A DNA stretch of 60,717 bases from a virus (taxonomy: Duplodnaviria > Caudoviricetes): positions 1-60,717 of IMG/VR virus record IMGVR_UViG_3300036798_000105; one strand, written 5' to 3'. Numbering within the stretch: the first letter of the stretch is position 1; the number at the start of each line of letters is the position of its first letter. Positions 5,555 to 58,436 of the stretch are shown one piece after another. A program made the position numbers and the translations under genes. Under the pieces are notes generated by a model that had not been told where the DNA came from, searched no databases, and saw only the letters and a list, made by a program, of their open reading frames with translations.

Positions 5555-5814
5555 TGGCACAGAAGGAAGAGCACACAAACATGCCGGCACAGTTGCTTAA
5601 GTACTGGACAACTGGCGCTGGCGCGGCTAAGCTACACTGGGGAGTTCCCGGTGACTTCGATGCGTGCGTGACAGAGTTGTCGAAGCATGTTTCGCCAGGC
5701 ATGGTCAAGGGGTTGTGCGCCAACATACACAGGCACGCAACAGGAGGCTGGCCCGGCCATGCGCCTGGCGTGGAAGAGGCCCTAACGAAAGCTCGCGAAA
5801 GCCGTTCGCGCTAG
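5554..5814 (+). CDS. Head-region hypothetical protein (YWT.G.GAAK..WG.PGDF..C motif)
   Basis: Coupled ORF. Motif recalled from actinophage head clusters. Confidence 0.65.
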   Translation: MAQKEEHTNMPAQLLKYWTTGAGAAKLHWGVPGDFDACVTELSKHVSPGMVKGLCANIHRHATGGWPGHAPGVEEALTKARESRSR

Positions 5815-5818
5815 GGGC

Positions 5819-5847
5819 TAGACTTCCCGGCCGGAAGGGTATATACT
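5819..5847 (+). promoter_or_regulatory. Predicted promoter TAGACT-N17-TATACT in a CA/TG-free island (5773-5867)
   Basis: Sigma70/SigA-like hexamers with 17-nt spacer, upstream of scaffold and capsid genes. Confidence 0.75.
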
Positions 5848-5880
5848 CCCGCGTAGAGACGTAAACCTGGAGGGCGTGAT

Positions 5881-6531
5881 ATGAGCGGAGCTGCTGGGGA
5901 CGCCGGAGCTGGGCCCGCAACGGGCACCGCCGGATCGGCACCCGACACGGGTGCGAACGGCACGGCTACGGAAGACCAGGATGCTGCTGGATTGCTAGGT
6001 GGCATGCTCGAAAACGGTCAAGGTCAAGACGATGACCTTACCGCGCAAGTTGAGCACTGGAAGCAGATGTCCCGCAAGAATGAGCAGCGGGCCAAGGCTA
6101 ACGCTAGTGCTGCGTCGAGGCTTCAGCAGATCGAAGACGCAAACAAGACCGAACTCCAGAAAGCGCTAGATGGTCAGGCTGCGGCCGAGCGTGAGCGTGA
6201 TGAAGCAAGATCCTCGCATGCTCGCGTTATGGCGGCCGCTTCAAACAACCTTCCTCCAGAACTCATTGATCACCTCGGAGCCGGAACGGAAGAGGAAATC
6301 AATGAGCGAGCAGAGCTATTCTCCCGGATCATAGATGAGACGGCCCAGGCGATAGCGGAACAGCTCGTGGCGGATGCTGGCATTGACCTGAACGGGGCAA
6401 CGCCGCAACCGCAGCAGCAGCAGCCACAACCGGGCGCACGTCCTGTTGAATCCATGAGGCCTGGATCGGCCCCATCTGGCGGAACGCCAACGAGCAACGA
6501 GCAATGGTTCCGTAACCTGCTCGGTCAGTAA
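5881..6531 (+). CDS. Capsid scaffolding protein
   Basis: WK..SRKNE.RAK.N and ANKTELQKA coiled-coil motifs, directly before the capsid gene. Confidence 0.85.
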   Translation: MSGAAGDAGAGPATGTAGSAPDTGANGTATEDQDAAGLLGGMLENGQGQDDDLTAQVEHWKQMSRKNEQRAKANASAASRLQQIEDANKTELQKALDGQAAAERERDEARSSHARVMAAASNNLPPELIDHLGAGTEEEINERAELFSRIIDETAQAIAEQLVADAGIDLNGATPQPQQQQPQPGARPVESMRPGSAPSGGTPTSNEQWFRNLLGQ

Positions 6532-6569
6532 TAGGCACTACGCTCCGCCGTGGTGCGGGAAGGCTTCAA

Positions 6570-7709
6570 ATGGCAGGCACCTACAATGAGGGGATCTTCC
6601 GGTCGTCCGGGACTCCCGACCCCCTCGTGCCGCAGCCCTTGGCTACGGCGATTATCCAGGAGGCTCCAAAAGCCTCAGCCGCTCTCACTCTCATGAACAA
6701 GACGGTCCTCTCGTCCAAGACTCAGCGGATGCCCGTGCTCGACGTGCTCCCGATGGCATACTGGGTCGGCGGGGACACCGGTCTCAAGCAGACTTCCCAG
6801 ATGGCGTGGCAAAACGTCATCATGGTCGTGGAGGAACTCGCTTGTATCGTTCCGATCCCGCTTGCGTACCTTGACGATGCGGATGTGCCGCTTTGGTCGC
6901 AGGTTCAGCCTCGCATCACGGAGGCTGTCGGCGCGCTGATCGACTCTGCGGTGTTGTGGGGGATCAACAAGCCCGCGACATGGGGCGAGGCAGTGTTCAC
7001 CGGGGCGGGCAAGTCGGGGCACTTCGCGATCGAGGGTGCCGGCCTTGACCTTGGCCAGGATGTCACCACTCTGGGCCAGATGATGGCGCAGACAGGCTAC
7101 ACGGTCAGCGGTTTCGCCGCGATGCCGGGCATCAGCTGGAAGCTAGCCGGAATCCGGTCGTCGCAGGGCATCCCCATCTTCCAGTCGGACATGTCTGACA
7201 CACCAGGGGGCAAGCTCTATGGGTACCAGATGTCCGAGATCAACAACGGCTCCTGGCAGAACCCAACTGCCGGCGCGCTCATGCTCGCCGGGGACTTCTC
7301 CAAGGCCATCATCGGCATTCGGCAGGACATCAACTTCAAGATGTTCACCGAGGGCGTCATCTCCGACGACACCGGCAAGGTCATCCTCAACCTCATGCAG
7401 CAGGACGCCGTTGCGATGCGTATGGTAATGCGCCTCGCCTACGCGACCGTCAACCCGGTCACTGTCATGCAGAAGAACCAGACGATCACCCAACGGTGGC
7501 CGTTCGGCGCGGTTCTGGGCGTTGGTACTGTTGCGCCCGCTAGCGGCCCGATCAACGTCATCCAGGCGTACCCAGGTGGCACGCGTACCACTACCGCTGT
7601 CGGTACGGCTGCGGAGGGCGATGAGGAGGAAGGCAGCACTCCCGCTGAGGAAGGCAGCACTCACACCAAGACCACTGGCCGCTCCACCAAGACGACGGCT
7701 AAGGACTAG
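6570..7709 (+). CDS. Major capsid protein (HK97 fold)
   Basis: AYWVG, EELACIVPIP, AGDFS and NLMQQDAVAMR motifs; strongly biased codon use. Confidence 0.92.
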   Translation: MAGTYNEGIFRSSGTPDPLVPQPLATAIIQEAPKASAALTLMNKTVLSSKTQRMPVLDVLPMAYWVGGDTGLKQTSQMAWQNVIMVVEELACIVPIPLAYLDDADVPLWSQVQPRITEAVGALIDSAVLWGINKPATWGEAVFTGAGKSGHFAIEGAGLDLGQDVTTLGQMMAQTGYTVSGFAAMPGISWKLAGIRSSQGIPIFQSDMSDTPGGKLYGYQMSEINNGSWQNPTAGALMLAGDFSKAIIGIRQDINFKMFTEGVISDDTGKVILNLMQQDAVAMRMVMRLAYATVNPVTVMQKNQTITQRWPFGAVLGVGTVAPASGPINVIQAYPGGTRTTTAVGTAAEGDEEEGSTPAEEGSTHTKTTGRSTKTTAKD

Positions 7710-7719
7710 CCGTTTTGTG

Positions 7720-7751
7720 CGCGGCTGTCGTCCCCTCCGTCGGCAGCCGCG
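7720..7751 (+). terminator. GC-rich hairpin after the capsid gene
   Basis: CGCGGCTGTCG-N10-CGGCAGCCGCG with no long U-tract. Confidence 0.5.
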
Positions 7752-56584: not shown

Positions 56585-56741
56585 GTGACAACCGCCGTGA
56601 TGACAATGACGAAATCAAGTTCAGGCTAATAAGCCTTTTTGACGTCCCCGATATAGAGTCAGAAGAGGAGGTGGATGTCTTCGTCCAAGTCAACTGGGAT
56701 CAGGTTACGCCGAAGTACCCGGATGACTTGAATGAACTGCC

Positions 56742-57821
56742 ATGAACAACAATGGCCACAACGGACTACGCGGTGGAACACAACCTACTGCCGAGCAAGA
56801 CAATGCGGTAAGGTACTGGGAGGGCATATATGACGCACAAGACGCAGCAAAGGAAATACGCAAGCAGAAAAAACTGCGATCAGGAGGTGATGAAGGCGTA
56901 TTCAGGAAGATACGAATCATGCCGGAAGACATCAAGGACGCAGAACAGGTCGAGTTCAGCAGTAGTGGTCTACTGCTAGACGTTGGCGTGCATAGAATCT
57001 CCGGGCCGCCGGGCGCTGGAAAGACAAGAGTGGCATACTGGGAGATAATTCAAAGAGTTTCATCAGGGCAGAAGTGGGCCGTTCTCGATGCCGAAATGGG
57101 GCAGGTTCGCTACAAGCAAGCTATGAAGCAACTCGGCGCTACTGACGACATCATGGGCGATATCTACTACATGGATGCGCTTGAAGGTGGAGTACCTGAC
57201 ATTCTAGAGCACGGACGTGCGCTAACAAGACTCCTACAAAATGGAGGATACCATGGAATCCTGTATGACTCACAAATTACATTCCTCGGCGCATCAGGCG
57301 TGTCAGAGAATGACGCACATGAAGTGCGGAACTGGACGGTAGCCGTATCAGGTATGCCATGTGTAATCATACTTGACCATACAGGACACATGAATGAATC
57401 GCGCGGCCGTGGCACGTCAGACAAAGCGGCAGGATGCGATGTCGATCTGGTACTAAAGCCTATTAGGCCATTCTCAATAGAGCTATCTGGCAGCATATCG
57501 CTAACTGTCAACAAGGACCGTTCCGGCACTATGGCTGTTGATTCATTCATTGATATAGGCATCGAATGTCTTGGGCTAGGCGATATGGACTTTAAGCCCG
57601 GCGAATGGATCATAGCGCAACCAGATTACAAGACTACCATAGCAGATTTGATTAACTTCATGACGATGGATGACAAGCGTGAATTCGTCACCGCTACGGA
57701 ACTACAAAGTAAGCTAAGGGGACGAAAGCAAAGTAAACTAGATCAGATACGAATCGCCGTTGAGAATGGTGAGATTGTTGAGTTTTTTGACGGCAGGAAA
57801 ACATGCTATTCAGCGGCATGA
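56742..57821 (+). CDS. RecA-fold replicative helicase-like ATPase
   Basis: GPPGAGKT, DAEMG, YDS, LDHTG, RG.S.K, KDR; follows the primase. Confidence 0.8.
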   Translation: MNNNGHNGLRGGTQPTAEQDNAVRYWEGIYDAQDAAKEIRKQKKLRSGGDEGVFRKIRIMPEDIKDAEQVEFSSSGLLLDVGVHRISGPPGAGKTRVAYWEIIQRVSSGQKWAVLDAEMGQVRYKQAMKQLGATDDIMGDIYYMDALEGGVPDILEHGRALTRLLQNGGYHGILYDSQITFLGASGVSENDAHEVRNWTVAVSGMPCVIILDHTGHMNESRGRGTSDKAAGCDVDLVLKPIRPFSIELSGSISLTVNKDRSGTMAVDSFIDIGIECLGLGDMDFKPGEWIIAQPDYKTTIADLINFMTMDDKREFVTATELQSKLRGRKQSKLDQIRIAVENGEIVEFFDGRKTCYSAA

Positions 57822-57824
57822 AAC

Positions 57825-57937
57825 GGTATCCTCAGGGTACCGGGTACCGTTTCGGTACCGCATGGAGGCATCAATAACGGGAAGCGGTACCCCGGTTACC
57901 CCCTCCGTAAGGAGGGTACCGGTACCGATACCGGTTA
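57825..57937. repeat. GGTACC repeat cluster (candidate replication origin)
   Basis: Six GGTACC plus GGTATC, GATACC and GGTTACC variants right after the helicase stop. Confidence 0.6.
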
Positions 57938-57958
57938 TGCCCGGAACTACATTCCAAT

Positions 57959-58366
57959 CTAGCCAGAATGAAAGTCACCGAGGTTAATTGTTACGATATG
58001 AGAGTCGGTATCGATTGAGATGTCGCGAATCCCAAAGTATACGAACCAGTCGCCGTCGCGCGGGATGAAGCAAACCAACGCGTCACCGTCGGCATCAAGT
58101 TGTGCCAGTTCTCGCGCGGTTTGTGATGCGGTCTTTGGCGTGCCGGTTGGGCGAGCCTCAATTATGCTTCTCCAGATGATGTTTGGGCTTACGATGACGT
58201 TGACGCGGATTCCCCTGAGATTTTGTCCGTCGTCGGTGATGACGTTGACTACCATAGTGCCGAGGCGTTCGAGTTGGCTTGCGAGTTCACCAGTTAGCAT
58301 TTCGGTCCTTTCGCTTGGTGTCTTCCTAGTATATCTTATCAGAGTCGAGGAGTCTAGTTTGGACAT
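57959..58366 (-). CDS. Hypothetical protein
   Basis: Fills the gap; divergent from the late promoter. Confidence 0.5.
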   Translation of the reverse strand: MSKLDSSTLIRYTRKTPSERTEMLTGELASQLERLGTMVVNVITDDGQNLRGIRVNVIVSPNIIWRSIIEARPTGTPKTASQTARELAQLDADGDALVCFIPRDGDWFVYFGIRDISIDTDSHIVTINLGDFHSG

Positions 58367-58407
58367 TCGAACTTCTTTTCGAGAGAAAAGTTGTTTCACT
58401 TTGTGTA

Positions 58408-58436
58408 TTTACTTCCGGGCCGGGATCGGCTATACT
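58408..58436 (+). promoter_or_regulatory. Predicted late-operon promoter TTTACT-N17-TATACT
   Basis: Upstream of the HNH/terminase operon. Confidence 0.65.

Follow-up and report, generated by a model that had tools for sequence, protein, structure and literature searches.

CA/TG-free islands at predicted promoters of an uncultured soil phage and a possible self-made thymine mark

Why a phage genome in which the dinucleotide step CA/TG recurs every 7.8 bp on average should contain long stretches without any such step, many of them at predicted promoters, is the question raised by IMG/VR record IMGVR_UViG_3300036798_000105, which was analyzed here over its full 60,717 nucleotides (the window). 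The record is that of an uncultured phage and is linear, 60.7 kb long, 57% G+C, and rated 94% complete; a search of sequencing runs located its sequence only in a soil metagenome. The original prediction was that promoters throughout this genome are kept clear of a DNA mark, with -35 boxes that avoid TTGACA. The purge of CA/TG is real; it coincides with promoter-like elements and extends to a recoded gene. The best explanation at hand is a thymine mark that the phage itself makes at TpG and from which the islands are kept free, and we would give it a probability of roughly 0.45.

All 14 CA/TG-free runs originally listed are present, with ends within 2 nt, and they are given in Table 1 as maximal runs; the three exceptions listed with them (a spacer at 55437, a TAGCCA box at 36714, and a step at 49288) are present as well. 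The window has 21 CA/TG-free runs of at least 60 bp, the longest of 689 bp, whereas first-order Markov copies of the window (n = 300) have a mean of 0.63 such runs (maximum, 4) and a longest run that averages 60.5 bp (maximum, 101 bp). The islands are real and specific to CA/TG: when runs are counted at a threshold of at least seven times a dinucleotide class's own mean spacing, CA/TG has 21 (2,439 bp), and nine control classes have 1 to 8 each. In the pooled runs (n = 26; 2,660 bp) CA and TG are both absent, the other pyrimidine-purine steps fill in for them, with observed/expected ratios (o/e) of 1.92 for TA and 1.65 for CG, and the G+C content is 60.8%, above the 57% of the genome. The purge is symmetric on both strands, and an extra purge confined to one strand was looked for and not seen.

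The islands are spread along the genome, and to this extent their description as genome-wide stands, but it does not extend to composition, as CA and TG have o/e values of 1.05 and 1.04 in the whole window. Depletion of the whole genome was considered and is ruled out by these values together with normal codon and junction usage. Genes of at least 100 codons use CTG, GTG, GCA, CCA, ACA, and TCA at normal levels, long open reading frames (ORFs) agree, and codon junctions show no avoidance (C before A, 1.11; T before G, 1.25). Neither the genome-wide under-representation of a target that characterizes classical restriction-site avoidance nor synonymous avoidance in coding DNA is found. Because coding DNA shows no avoidance, the pressure is local and not a general mutation bias. 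Noncoding DNA as a class is not used as evidence, as the home-made gene calls miss small genes and misplace starts, which contaminates the class (10.7 CA/TG steps per 100 bp vs 13.1 in coding DNA). Two segments without a gene in these crude calls, 52476-53329 and 58301-59190 (small genes are possible), are dense in CA/TG (16.8 and 15.5 per 100 bp) and form the compositional opposite of the islands. A further compositional trait of the clade is the high frequency of TA, whose o/e is 0.87 in the window and reaches 1.47 among relatives (L060 to L091), compared with 0.36 to 0.54 in four cultured actinophages. The codons CTA, GTA, and ATA are used often, whereas TTA hardly occurs (1 of 1,035 Leu codons).

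Most islands contain a TAnnnT box, as originally described, and lie directly upstream of genes, in the orientation of the gene; a TAnnnT box with a -35-like hexamer 16 to 18 nt upstream is the arrangement of Sigma-70/SigA-type promoters. The avoidance of TTGACA is also borne out, since the hexamers of the form TNGACN are TTGACA altered at just the TG- and CA-forming positions. Of the 13 listed islands to which a gene strand could be assigned, 4 have such a hexamer 17 to 18 nt upstream of TAnnnT (TAGACT, TAGACG, TCGACG, and TAGACG), against an expectation of 0.09 and a maximum of 2 in 2,000 trials with CA/TG-free random sequence; other islands have TCGCTT or TTCCCT as the -35-like box. GGG occupies the place of TGn in the extended -10 element (TGnTAnnnT), and of 15 GGGTAnnnT sites on the minus strand of the whole window, 8 are inside islands, which cover 4.5% of it. 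The TNGAC[T/G] and GGG substitutions make it fair to view these as SigA promoters edited around a forbidden step. A scan for consensus promoters returned 12 sites vs 7.9 ± 2.5 expected and says little, as it scores against the TTGACA that the islands avoid. The TAG(A/G)(A/C/G)T sequences presumably resemble a Streptomyces-type -10 box.

Viewed along the gene strand, each early island extends from shortly before the -35-like box to the start codon; six islands end exactly at the ATG of an ORF (30963, 39539, 45328, 47767, 48686, and 50010), and a Shine-Dalgarno-like sequence is present. The common early form has GATTCGCTT, a spacer with a CCGG..GGCCGG palindrome, and then GGG followed by TAGGAT, TAGACT, or TACCCT, and a second form has TAGACT, TAGACG, or TCGACG, 17 to 18 nt, and then TATACT or TAGGGT. 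Palindromes of the CCGG..GGCCGG type are shared by the -35/-10 spacers at 39560-39600, 41530-41545, 47810-47835, 48725-48750, and 54670-54685 and may be an operator for a common regulator. It is plausible, and partly supported by the statistics above, that most islands are SigA-type predicted promoters together with their leaders.

Comparison with relatives (G001 to G005 and L006 to L091 are relatives' genomes or loci, and G000 is the window phage) shows what is conserved in these islands and does so independently of the way in which the islands were chosen. G001 is ~81% identical to the window across 44.7 kb, and L060 is another contig, whose polymerase is 88% identical to that of the window (measured on L023, from the same contig). 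In 12 orthologous islands of G001 there are 131 aligned mismatches plus indels and only 5 CA/TG steps, whereas random placement of the same substitutions with the observed spectrum produces 38.2 ± 5.1 (minimum, 19), and 0 of 20,000 trials are as low as 5. Similarly, six islands of L060 have 97 mismatches and 4 CA/TG steps vs 25.9 ± 4.2 in simulation, with 0 of 20,000 trials as low. The islands are 68 to 92% identical to those of relatives, having diverged at about the rate of the remaining genome, and the feature that is kept is the absence of the CA/TG step, together with the -10 and -35 boxes. These comparisons show that the purge is maintained by selection, not by shared ancestry. It is strong in the window phage, in G001, and in L060 but moderate in G003 and weak in G002, and G004 and G005 lack it; the limitation of clear islands to the closest relatives points to a trait that is young and narrow.

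Although the islands of the original prediction are real, CA/TG-specific, selected, and mostly endowed with SigA-type boxes upstream of genes, the purge extends well past predicted promoters. Also cleared are the leaders as far as the start codon, a terminator-like hairpin, the 175-bp element where the two arms of the genome converge, and one recoded protein gene (Table 1).

Table 1. Coordinates of CA/TG-free islands, exceptions, and associated genes in the window, with counterparts in relatives
Feature	Position (length)	Strand	Context and sequence elements	Counterparts in relatives
Island	5772-5868 (97 bp)	+	TAGACT-17-TATACT; upstream of scaffold and capsid genes; overlaps final 14 codons of ORF 5551-5814	G001: 92% identity, 1 CA/TG step
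Island	21697-21745 (49 bp)	+	TAGACG-17-TATACT; upstream of lysis-region genes	G001: 5 mismatches, 0 CA/TG steps
Element	23714-23888 (175 bp)	none	Between convergent late (+) and replication (-) arms; no adjoining gene start	G001: run of equal length (175 bp), 71% identity over 110 aligned columns, 0 CA/TG steps
Island	30962-31038 (77 bp)	-	Between HAD-like and SDR genes; ends at ATG of gene 30706-30963; TATACT -10 box	G001: 68% identity; L060: 80% identity; 0 CA/TG steps in each
Island	39538-39605 (68 bp)	-	Predicted promoter/leader of SNF2 helicase gene (ATG 39539); TCGCTT-17-GGG TAGGAT	G001: 0 CA/TG steps
Island	41520-41590 (71 bp)	-	Predicted promoter TCGACG-17-GGG TATACT; upstream of gene 40918-41511	G001 and L060 (69% identity): 0 CA/TG steps in each
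Island	43483-43622 (140 bp)	-	Ends at GTG in frame with ORF 43209-43412; GGGTAGGGGTAG and TATAAT boxes	Orthologs: 20 and 27 mismatches, 0 and 1 CA/TG steps
Island group	44929-45468	-	Four runs, 44929-45023 (95 bp), 45027-45073, 45327-45373, and 45374-45468 (95 bp), around small gene 45032-45328; TAGACG-18-TAGGGT; hairpin GCCTCT..AGAGGC	
Island	47766-47847 (82 bp)	-	Predicted promoter/leader of AAA_25 (RepA/DnaB-like) gene (ATG 47767); GATTCGCTT-17-GGG TAGACT	
Island	48685-48765 (81 bp)	-	Predicted promoter/leader ending at ATG 48686; TCGCTT-17-GGG TACCCT	
Island	50009-50090 (82 bp)	-	Predicted promoter/leader ending at ATG 50010; GGG TAGGCT box	L060: 69% identity, 1 CA/TG step
Island	51118-51197 (80 bp)	-	Predicted promoter of leftward early operon (start at 51112); GATTCGCTA-17-TAGACT	
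Island	54631-54698 (68 bp)	-	GGG TAGGCT box; upstream of 54355-54621 gene region	G001: 0 CA/TG steps
Two runs beyond the 14	55300-55371 (72 bp), 55451-55511 (61 bp)	none	Divergent region before primase-polymerase gene	G001: 0 and 2 CA/TG steps
Further runs beyond the 14	51594-52282 (689 bp), 52305-52380 (76 bp), 52381-52475 (95 bp), 57873-57938 (66 bp)			
Coding run beyond the 14	32923-33029 (107 bp)	-	Arg/Ala/Thr-rich linker of SSB-like protein; not a promoter	
Coding run beyond the 14	17151-17212 (62 bp)			
Exception	55437-55466		TAGACT-18-TATACT with CA/TG within spacer	
Exception	36719-36691		TAGCCA-17-TATACT	
Exception	49242-49288		Run that stops at 49288	
Cassette block	51594-52475 (882 bp)	+	Only 4 CA/TG steps; predicted promoter-to-terminator unit	
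Cassette paralog	48769-49224	-	151 aa, 57 CA/TG steps, normal ATG start	
Glycosyltransferase (candidate writer)	40082-40918	-	N-terminal match to TET-associated glycosyltransferase (TAGT, PF20691); PHROG 842	
Nucleotide/sugar enzyme block	28954-32824	-	Divergent ThyX, SDR, HAD/PNK-like protein, FAD/NAD-binding flavoprotein, MazG-like pyrophosphatase	

The recoded gene lies in a cassette block organized as a repeat-rich control region, a GGGTACGCT -10-like box (51923-51931), leader hairpins, the ORF, a terminator-like hairpin (52433-52455), and TTATT. The frame is open between 52017 and 52412, and the ORF probably starts at ATC 52038 (or ATT 52032) and ends at TAA 52412. Three of the four CA/TG steps in ORF 52038-52409 are obligatory (Met, Trp, and Gln codons), and synonymous resampling gives 35.4 ± 4.4 steps (minimum, 19), with 0 of 5,000 resampled sequences as low. 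The first 81 codons contain no Met, His, Gln, Cys, or Trp, there is no ATG, GTG, or TTG in the frame upstream of the conserved domain, and the only ATG of the window's ORF is at 52281. Thus, the purge overrides protein coding in this unit, with 4 steps vs 35.4, five amino acids missing, and no NTG start, just as it overrides the promoter consensus where TAGACT, TAGACG, and TCGACG stand for TTGACA and GGGTAnnnT replaces TGnTAnnnT.

Translation of the cassette gene is likely to start upstream of ATG 52281, at ATC 52038 or ATT 52032, judging from the open frame, a shared domain architecture, and a conserved GY..(A/S)P.A(M) segment, located immediately before this ATG, that aligns with homologs in G002 and G003 and with a paralog in the window. 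Homologs of the C-terminal 43 codons are present in both of these relatives as well as in paralog 48769-49224, to which the cassette is 59% identical over its C-terminal 50 residues (E 3e-12, tblastn). In the two homologs and the paralog, the conserved segment begins ~12 residues upstream of the position of the cassette's only ATG, and all three have a Lys/Ala-rich, coiled-coil-like N terminus, as does the upstream frame of the cassette. An AAAAGG motif is located 8 nt before ATC 52038. The N-terminal part of the frame has no significant match to the G002 protein (BLASTP with composition adjustment, E 3.0). The paralog family in the window comprises 36208-36939, 48769-49224, and 52017-52412, with the domain Y..K(E/D)..P.M..(F/Y)..W(I/F)E...FQ(K/S)S; 36208-36939 ends in an AT-hook-like RGRGRP tail, and searches for a function of the family gave no match in Pfam and no usable match in Atlas. 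A cassette homolog in G002 (L041), at 60210-61230, has about half the normal CA/TG density, and its upstream 300 bp consist of four consecutive free runs of 55 to 60 bp, so that it looks like a partial cassette. The longer of the two coding runs lies in an SSB-like protein (32824-33633) that combines an acidic stretch with a repeat linker rich in Arg, Ala, and Thr and ends in DDPPF; runs of 106 to 109 bp are found in the loci of five relatives, of which at least those of G001 and G002 resemble 32923-33029.

CA and TG are a single duplex step, and because both are absent, from promoter DNA as well, with no one-strand purge, the reader of the step most likely acts on double-stranded DNA. Under the explanation that we favor, the phage would mark its own DNA at 5'-TG-3'/5'-CA-3', most likely by attaching a bulky, sugar-type group to the TpG thymine, and DNA that proteins must read would be kept free of the step and hence would be ordinary, unmarked DNA. 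The unmarked stretches would be the SigA-type promoters from about -40, leaders to the start codon, the terminator, the 175-bp element, and one complete "pioneer" transcription unit, and coding DNA elsewhere would carry the mark on ~30% of its thymines. TG holds 30.8% of plus-strand T (4,259 of 13,837), a share similar to the modified fractions in published cases. Bulky major-groove groups block bacterial RNA polymerase at promoters, according to the introduction of PMC11550810, which cites Raindlova 2016. We infer that a mark exists, sits at TG, is written by the glycosyltransferase cluster, and would block RNA polymerase or regulators.

A more tentative extension is that the genome may be split into two epigenetic compartments written in its sequence, a TpG-marked gene body with ~30% of thymines modified and unmarked intervals that include a recoded pioneer gene made first. 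The unmarked compartment would contain every promoter and leader, a few DNA elements, and the pioneer gene, initiated at ATC or ATT. Being the sole unit that is fully readable, the pioneer unit would be expressed first, and its product, which has two ordinary paralogs as twins, would then assist the polymerase of the host or the replication machinery in coping with marked DNA.

Candidate writers are found among the replication and early genes. The plus-strand arm is structural (portal, capsid, VG15-like protein, tail proteins, and an amidase endolysin, with a small terminase near the end). The minus-strand arm codes for a split DnaE-type polymerase with a PHP domain, ThyX, an SDR, a HAD-like protein, a flavoprotein, and a MazG-like enzyme, and also for an SSB-like protein, AAA_24, a PD-(D/E)XK nuclease, an SNF2 helicase, the glycosyltransferase, AAA_25, and numerous small genes. 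Scans of the window against Rfam and for tRNAs gave no matches. The nearest named phages are actinophages (Mycobacterium phages PLot, PBI1, and Onyinye and Nocardia phage P3.1), with ~47 to 48% polymerase identity. Residues 4 to 93 of the glycosyltransferase match PF20691 (E 2e-9; 38.1 bits vs a cut-off of 27.5 bits), the signature of the TAGT family; it has 91 homologs, all metagenomic and most with PF20691, and none were found in 50,697 phage records. The ThyX-like protein (28954-29925) is very divergent, matching solved ThyX structures at E 4e-8, with RQR in place of RHR. According to O'Toole et al. 2026 (PMC13229309), the phage T-dioxygenase 5mYOX176 is ParB dependent and prefers NTG, and glycosyltransferases co-occur in 31% of 5mYOX contigs.

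A second precedent is provided by Pbunavirus phages F8 and 14-1, for which the available sections of a preprint (Yee et al. 2025, PMC12191111) describe a sugar-like thymidine derivative on about one quarter of T, in a TG motif; these sections name no biosynthesis genes for the F8 mark. F8 shares with the window a DnaE-type polymerase (36% identity), a ThyX-like enzyme (28%; E 6e-25), and an SNF2 helicase, and it also has MazG-like and PNK-like genes; homologs of the window's glycosyltransferase, flavoprotein, HAD-like protein, and SDR were not found in F8 at E 1e-3.

Several observations weigh against a self-made mark. A search of all six frames of the window for Tet_JBP (PF12851), at E up to 1, gave no match, a very divergent member being possible; ParB_N (PF02195) has no match in the window, and no methyltransferase is present among 60 window proteins scanned with Pfam. 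Of 32 glycosyltransferase-bearing loci, only the three closest (L060, L061, and L062) have a clear island excess, and G004 and G005 have the gene and no islands. Four cultured actinophages with a ThyX-oxidoreductase cassette have CA/TG o/e values of 1.07 to 1.18, TA values of 0.36 to 0.54, and no island excess. Partial thymine hypermodification has been demonstrated chemically in two cultured phages. Of these, F8, with its TG-context mark, shows no purge (10.8 CA/TG per 100 bp intergenic vs 12.4 coding; longest run, 88 bp), and M6, in which ~30% of T is modified, contains no such island for any dinucleotide. Within the window, synonymous sites are not depleted, with T-before-G junctions at 1.25, unlike what would be expected if a mark hindered transcription generally.

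Neither the glycosyltransferase nor a TG mark is sufficient for islands, and the lack of islands in F8 and M6 means that a mark alone does not force a purge. With these two cultured counter-examples, self-modification cannot be the whole story; the island half of the original prediction stands, and its appeal to a mark is weakened. Other candidate genes have a similarly loose association: ThyX, the HAD-like protein, and the flavoprotein occur both with and without islands among relatives, and the MazG-like gene is present in G000, G001, L006, L022, and L023, of which L006 and L022 have no long runs. The overall CA/TG o/e of the 32 glycosyltransferase loci forms a continuum from 0.65 to 1.20, with TA o/e of up to 1.47.

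Among the alternatives, the best survivor is another reader of duplex CA/TG, with no self-made mark: a host defense nuclease, a silencing or nucleoid protein, or a phage DNA-binding protein, which control regions and the pioneer unit must escape. We regard it as unlikely, if a serious competitor. The duplex symmetry, the selection, the edited promoter boxes, and the recoded cassette fit it equally well, and the confinement of a strong purge to a narrow sub-clade (G000, G001, L060, and partly G003) is as host-specific pressure would have it. Modified phages F8 and M6 lacking islands are in keeping with it, as are 14 of the 32 glycosyltransferase loci, with CA/TG o/e of 0.65 to 0.89 and TA of up to 1.47, a pattern that looks like ordinary target avoidance. 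However, we know of no protein that reads the bare CA/TG step, a nuclease should deplete coding DNA too, where the window phage has no synonymous avoidance, and the clearing of promoters and leaders rather than of all DNA is left unexplained.

A constraint on RNA is improbable. It would require untranslated RNA (leaders, intercistronic spacers, and the pioneer mRNA) to lack UG, with its NUG starts and UGA, and CA, the reason being either false starts of translation or a ribonuclease. In its favor, no fewer than six islands on the minus strand stop precisely where a listed ORF has its start codon, ATG, GTG, TTG, and CTG are impossible within an island on either strand, and read-through from upstream genes could place even promoter DNA in a transcript. 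Yet UG and CA, both absent from one strand, are reverse complements, so that a single duplex cause is simpler than two RNA rules, and the enrichment of UA (1.92) and CG (1.65) speaks against a ribonuclease that cleaves at pyrimidine-purine steps. The translated cassette gene is purged as well, and the 175-bp element lies downstream of both arms.

Context-specific mutation, in which a mutagenic modified T (TG to CG) or deamination (CA to TA) erodes CA/TG where selection is weak, would account for the enrichment of TA and CG in the islands and for the rise of TA and CG o/e as CA/TG o/e falls across the clade. We consider it very improbable: synonymous sites and junctions of the window phage show no loss (NCA and NTG codons are normal, with junctions of 1.25 for T before G and 1.11 for C before A), and drift would not remove a start codon and five amino acids from the cassette while its C-terminal domain is conserved. 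Scarcely credible, and already contradicted, is the trivial possibility that the islands are copies of one promoter module that lacks CA/TG by chance, plus compositional bias, for although several early promoters share GATTCGCTT...CCGG...GGGTAG and the 48685 and 50009 leaders resemble each other, the variable leaders lack the step no less than do unrelated islands and the 689-bp and 175-bp runs, orthologs that have diverged by 8 to 32% stay free in a way that random substitution never reproduced, and control dinucleotides show nothing similar.

If the phage does mark TpG and keeps its control DNA unmarked, the modification motif of an uncultured phage could be read from its genome sequence alone, and dinucleotide-free control islands would be a sequence-only signature that names the context of DNA hypermodification in uncultured phages. 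A protective mark would then have a regulatory cost, paid by rewriting promoters, start codons, and even protein composition, and the testable prediction would be a sugar-type thymine mark that is specific to TG and has a TAGT-type glycosyltransferase as its writer, with no TET partner. Even without a mark, a factor that reads bare CA/TG strongly enough to clear 21 stretches and to recode a gene would be new. Among the papers listed by our literature searches, none reports motif-free promoter islands in a phage, judging by title and abstract, and the sections of PMC13229309 and PMC12191111 that were consulted make no mention of motif-free islands or regions in their source genomes.

Several known systems come close. 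Pbunavirus F8 and 14-1 have a TG-context, sugar-like thymine mark, which is putative in the window phage, and F8 differs in having no islands. The 5mYOX phages are alike in marking thymine after replication at a two-letter context, often with extension by glycosyltransferases, and their authors suggest an epigenetic-like regulation (PMC13229309). They differ from the window in their Tet_JBP and ParB_N domains, neither of which was found in it. Phages such as T7 and T5 have target-free leading regions or avoid restriction sites, which are 4 to 8 bp long and usually avoided genome-wide; the likeness is in the loss, local or global, of a short sequence read by an enzyme, including from genes that must act first, but in the window the sequence lost is a 2-bp step, missing just from control DNA and a single gene unit, and coding DNA keeps an o/e of 1.05. 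Base J of trypanosomatids is a glucosylated hydroxymethyl-uracil placed by JBP dioxygenases, and its position matters for where transcription starts and stops; unlike the pattern in the window, it is eukaryotic and is placed regionally, not through loss of a dinucleotide from control DNA. Vertebrate CpG islands are also promoter-centered stretches of differing dinucleotide content tied to a dinucleotide-specific mark (putative in the phage), and the window may hold a bacterial-virus counterpart of such promoter islands. However, host and chemistry differ, and CpG islands keep their target step, unmethylated, having arisen by escape from deamination, whereas in the islands of the window the target step itself is deleted and the origin is selection.

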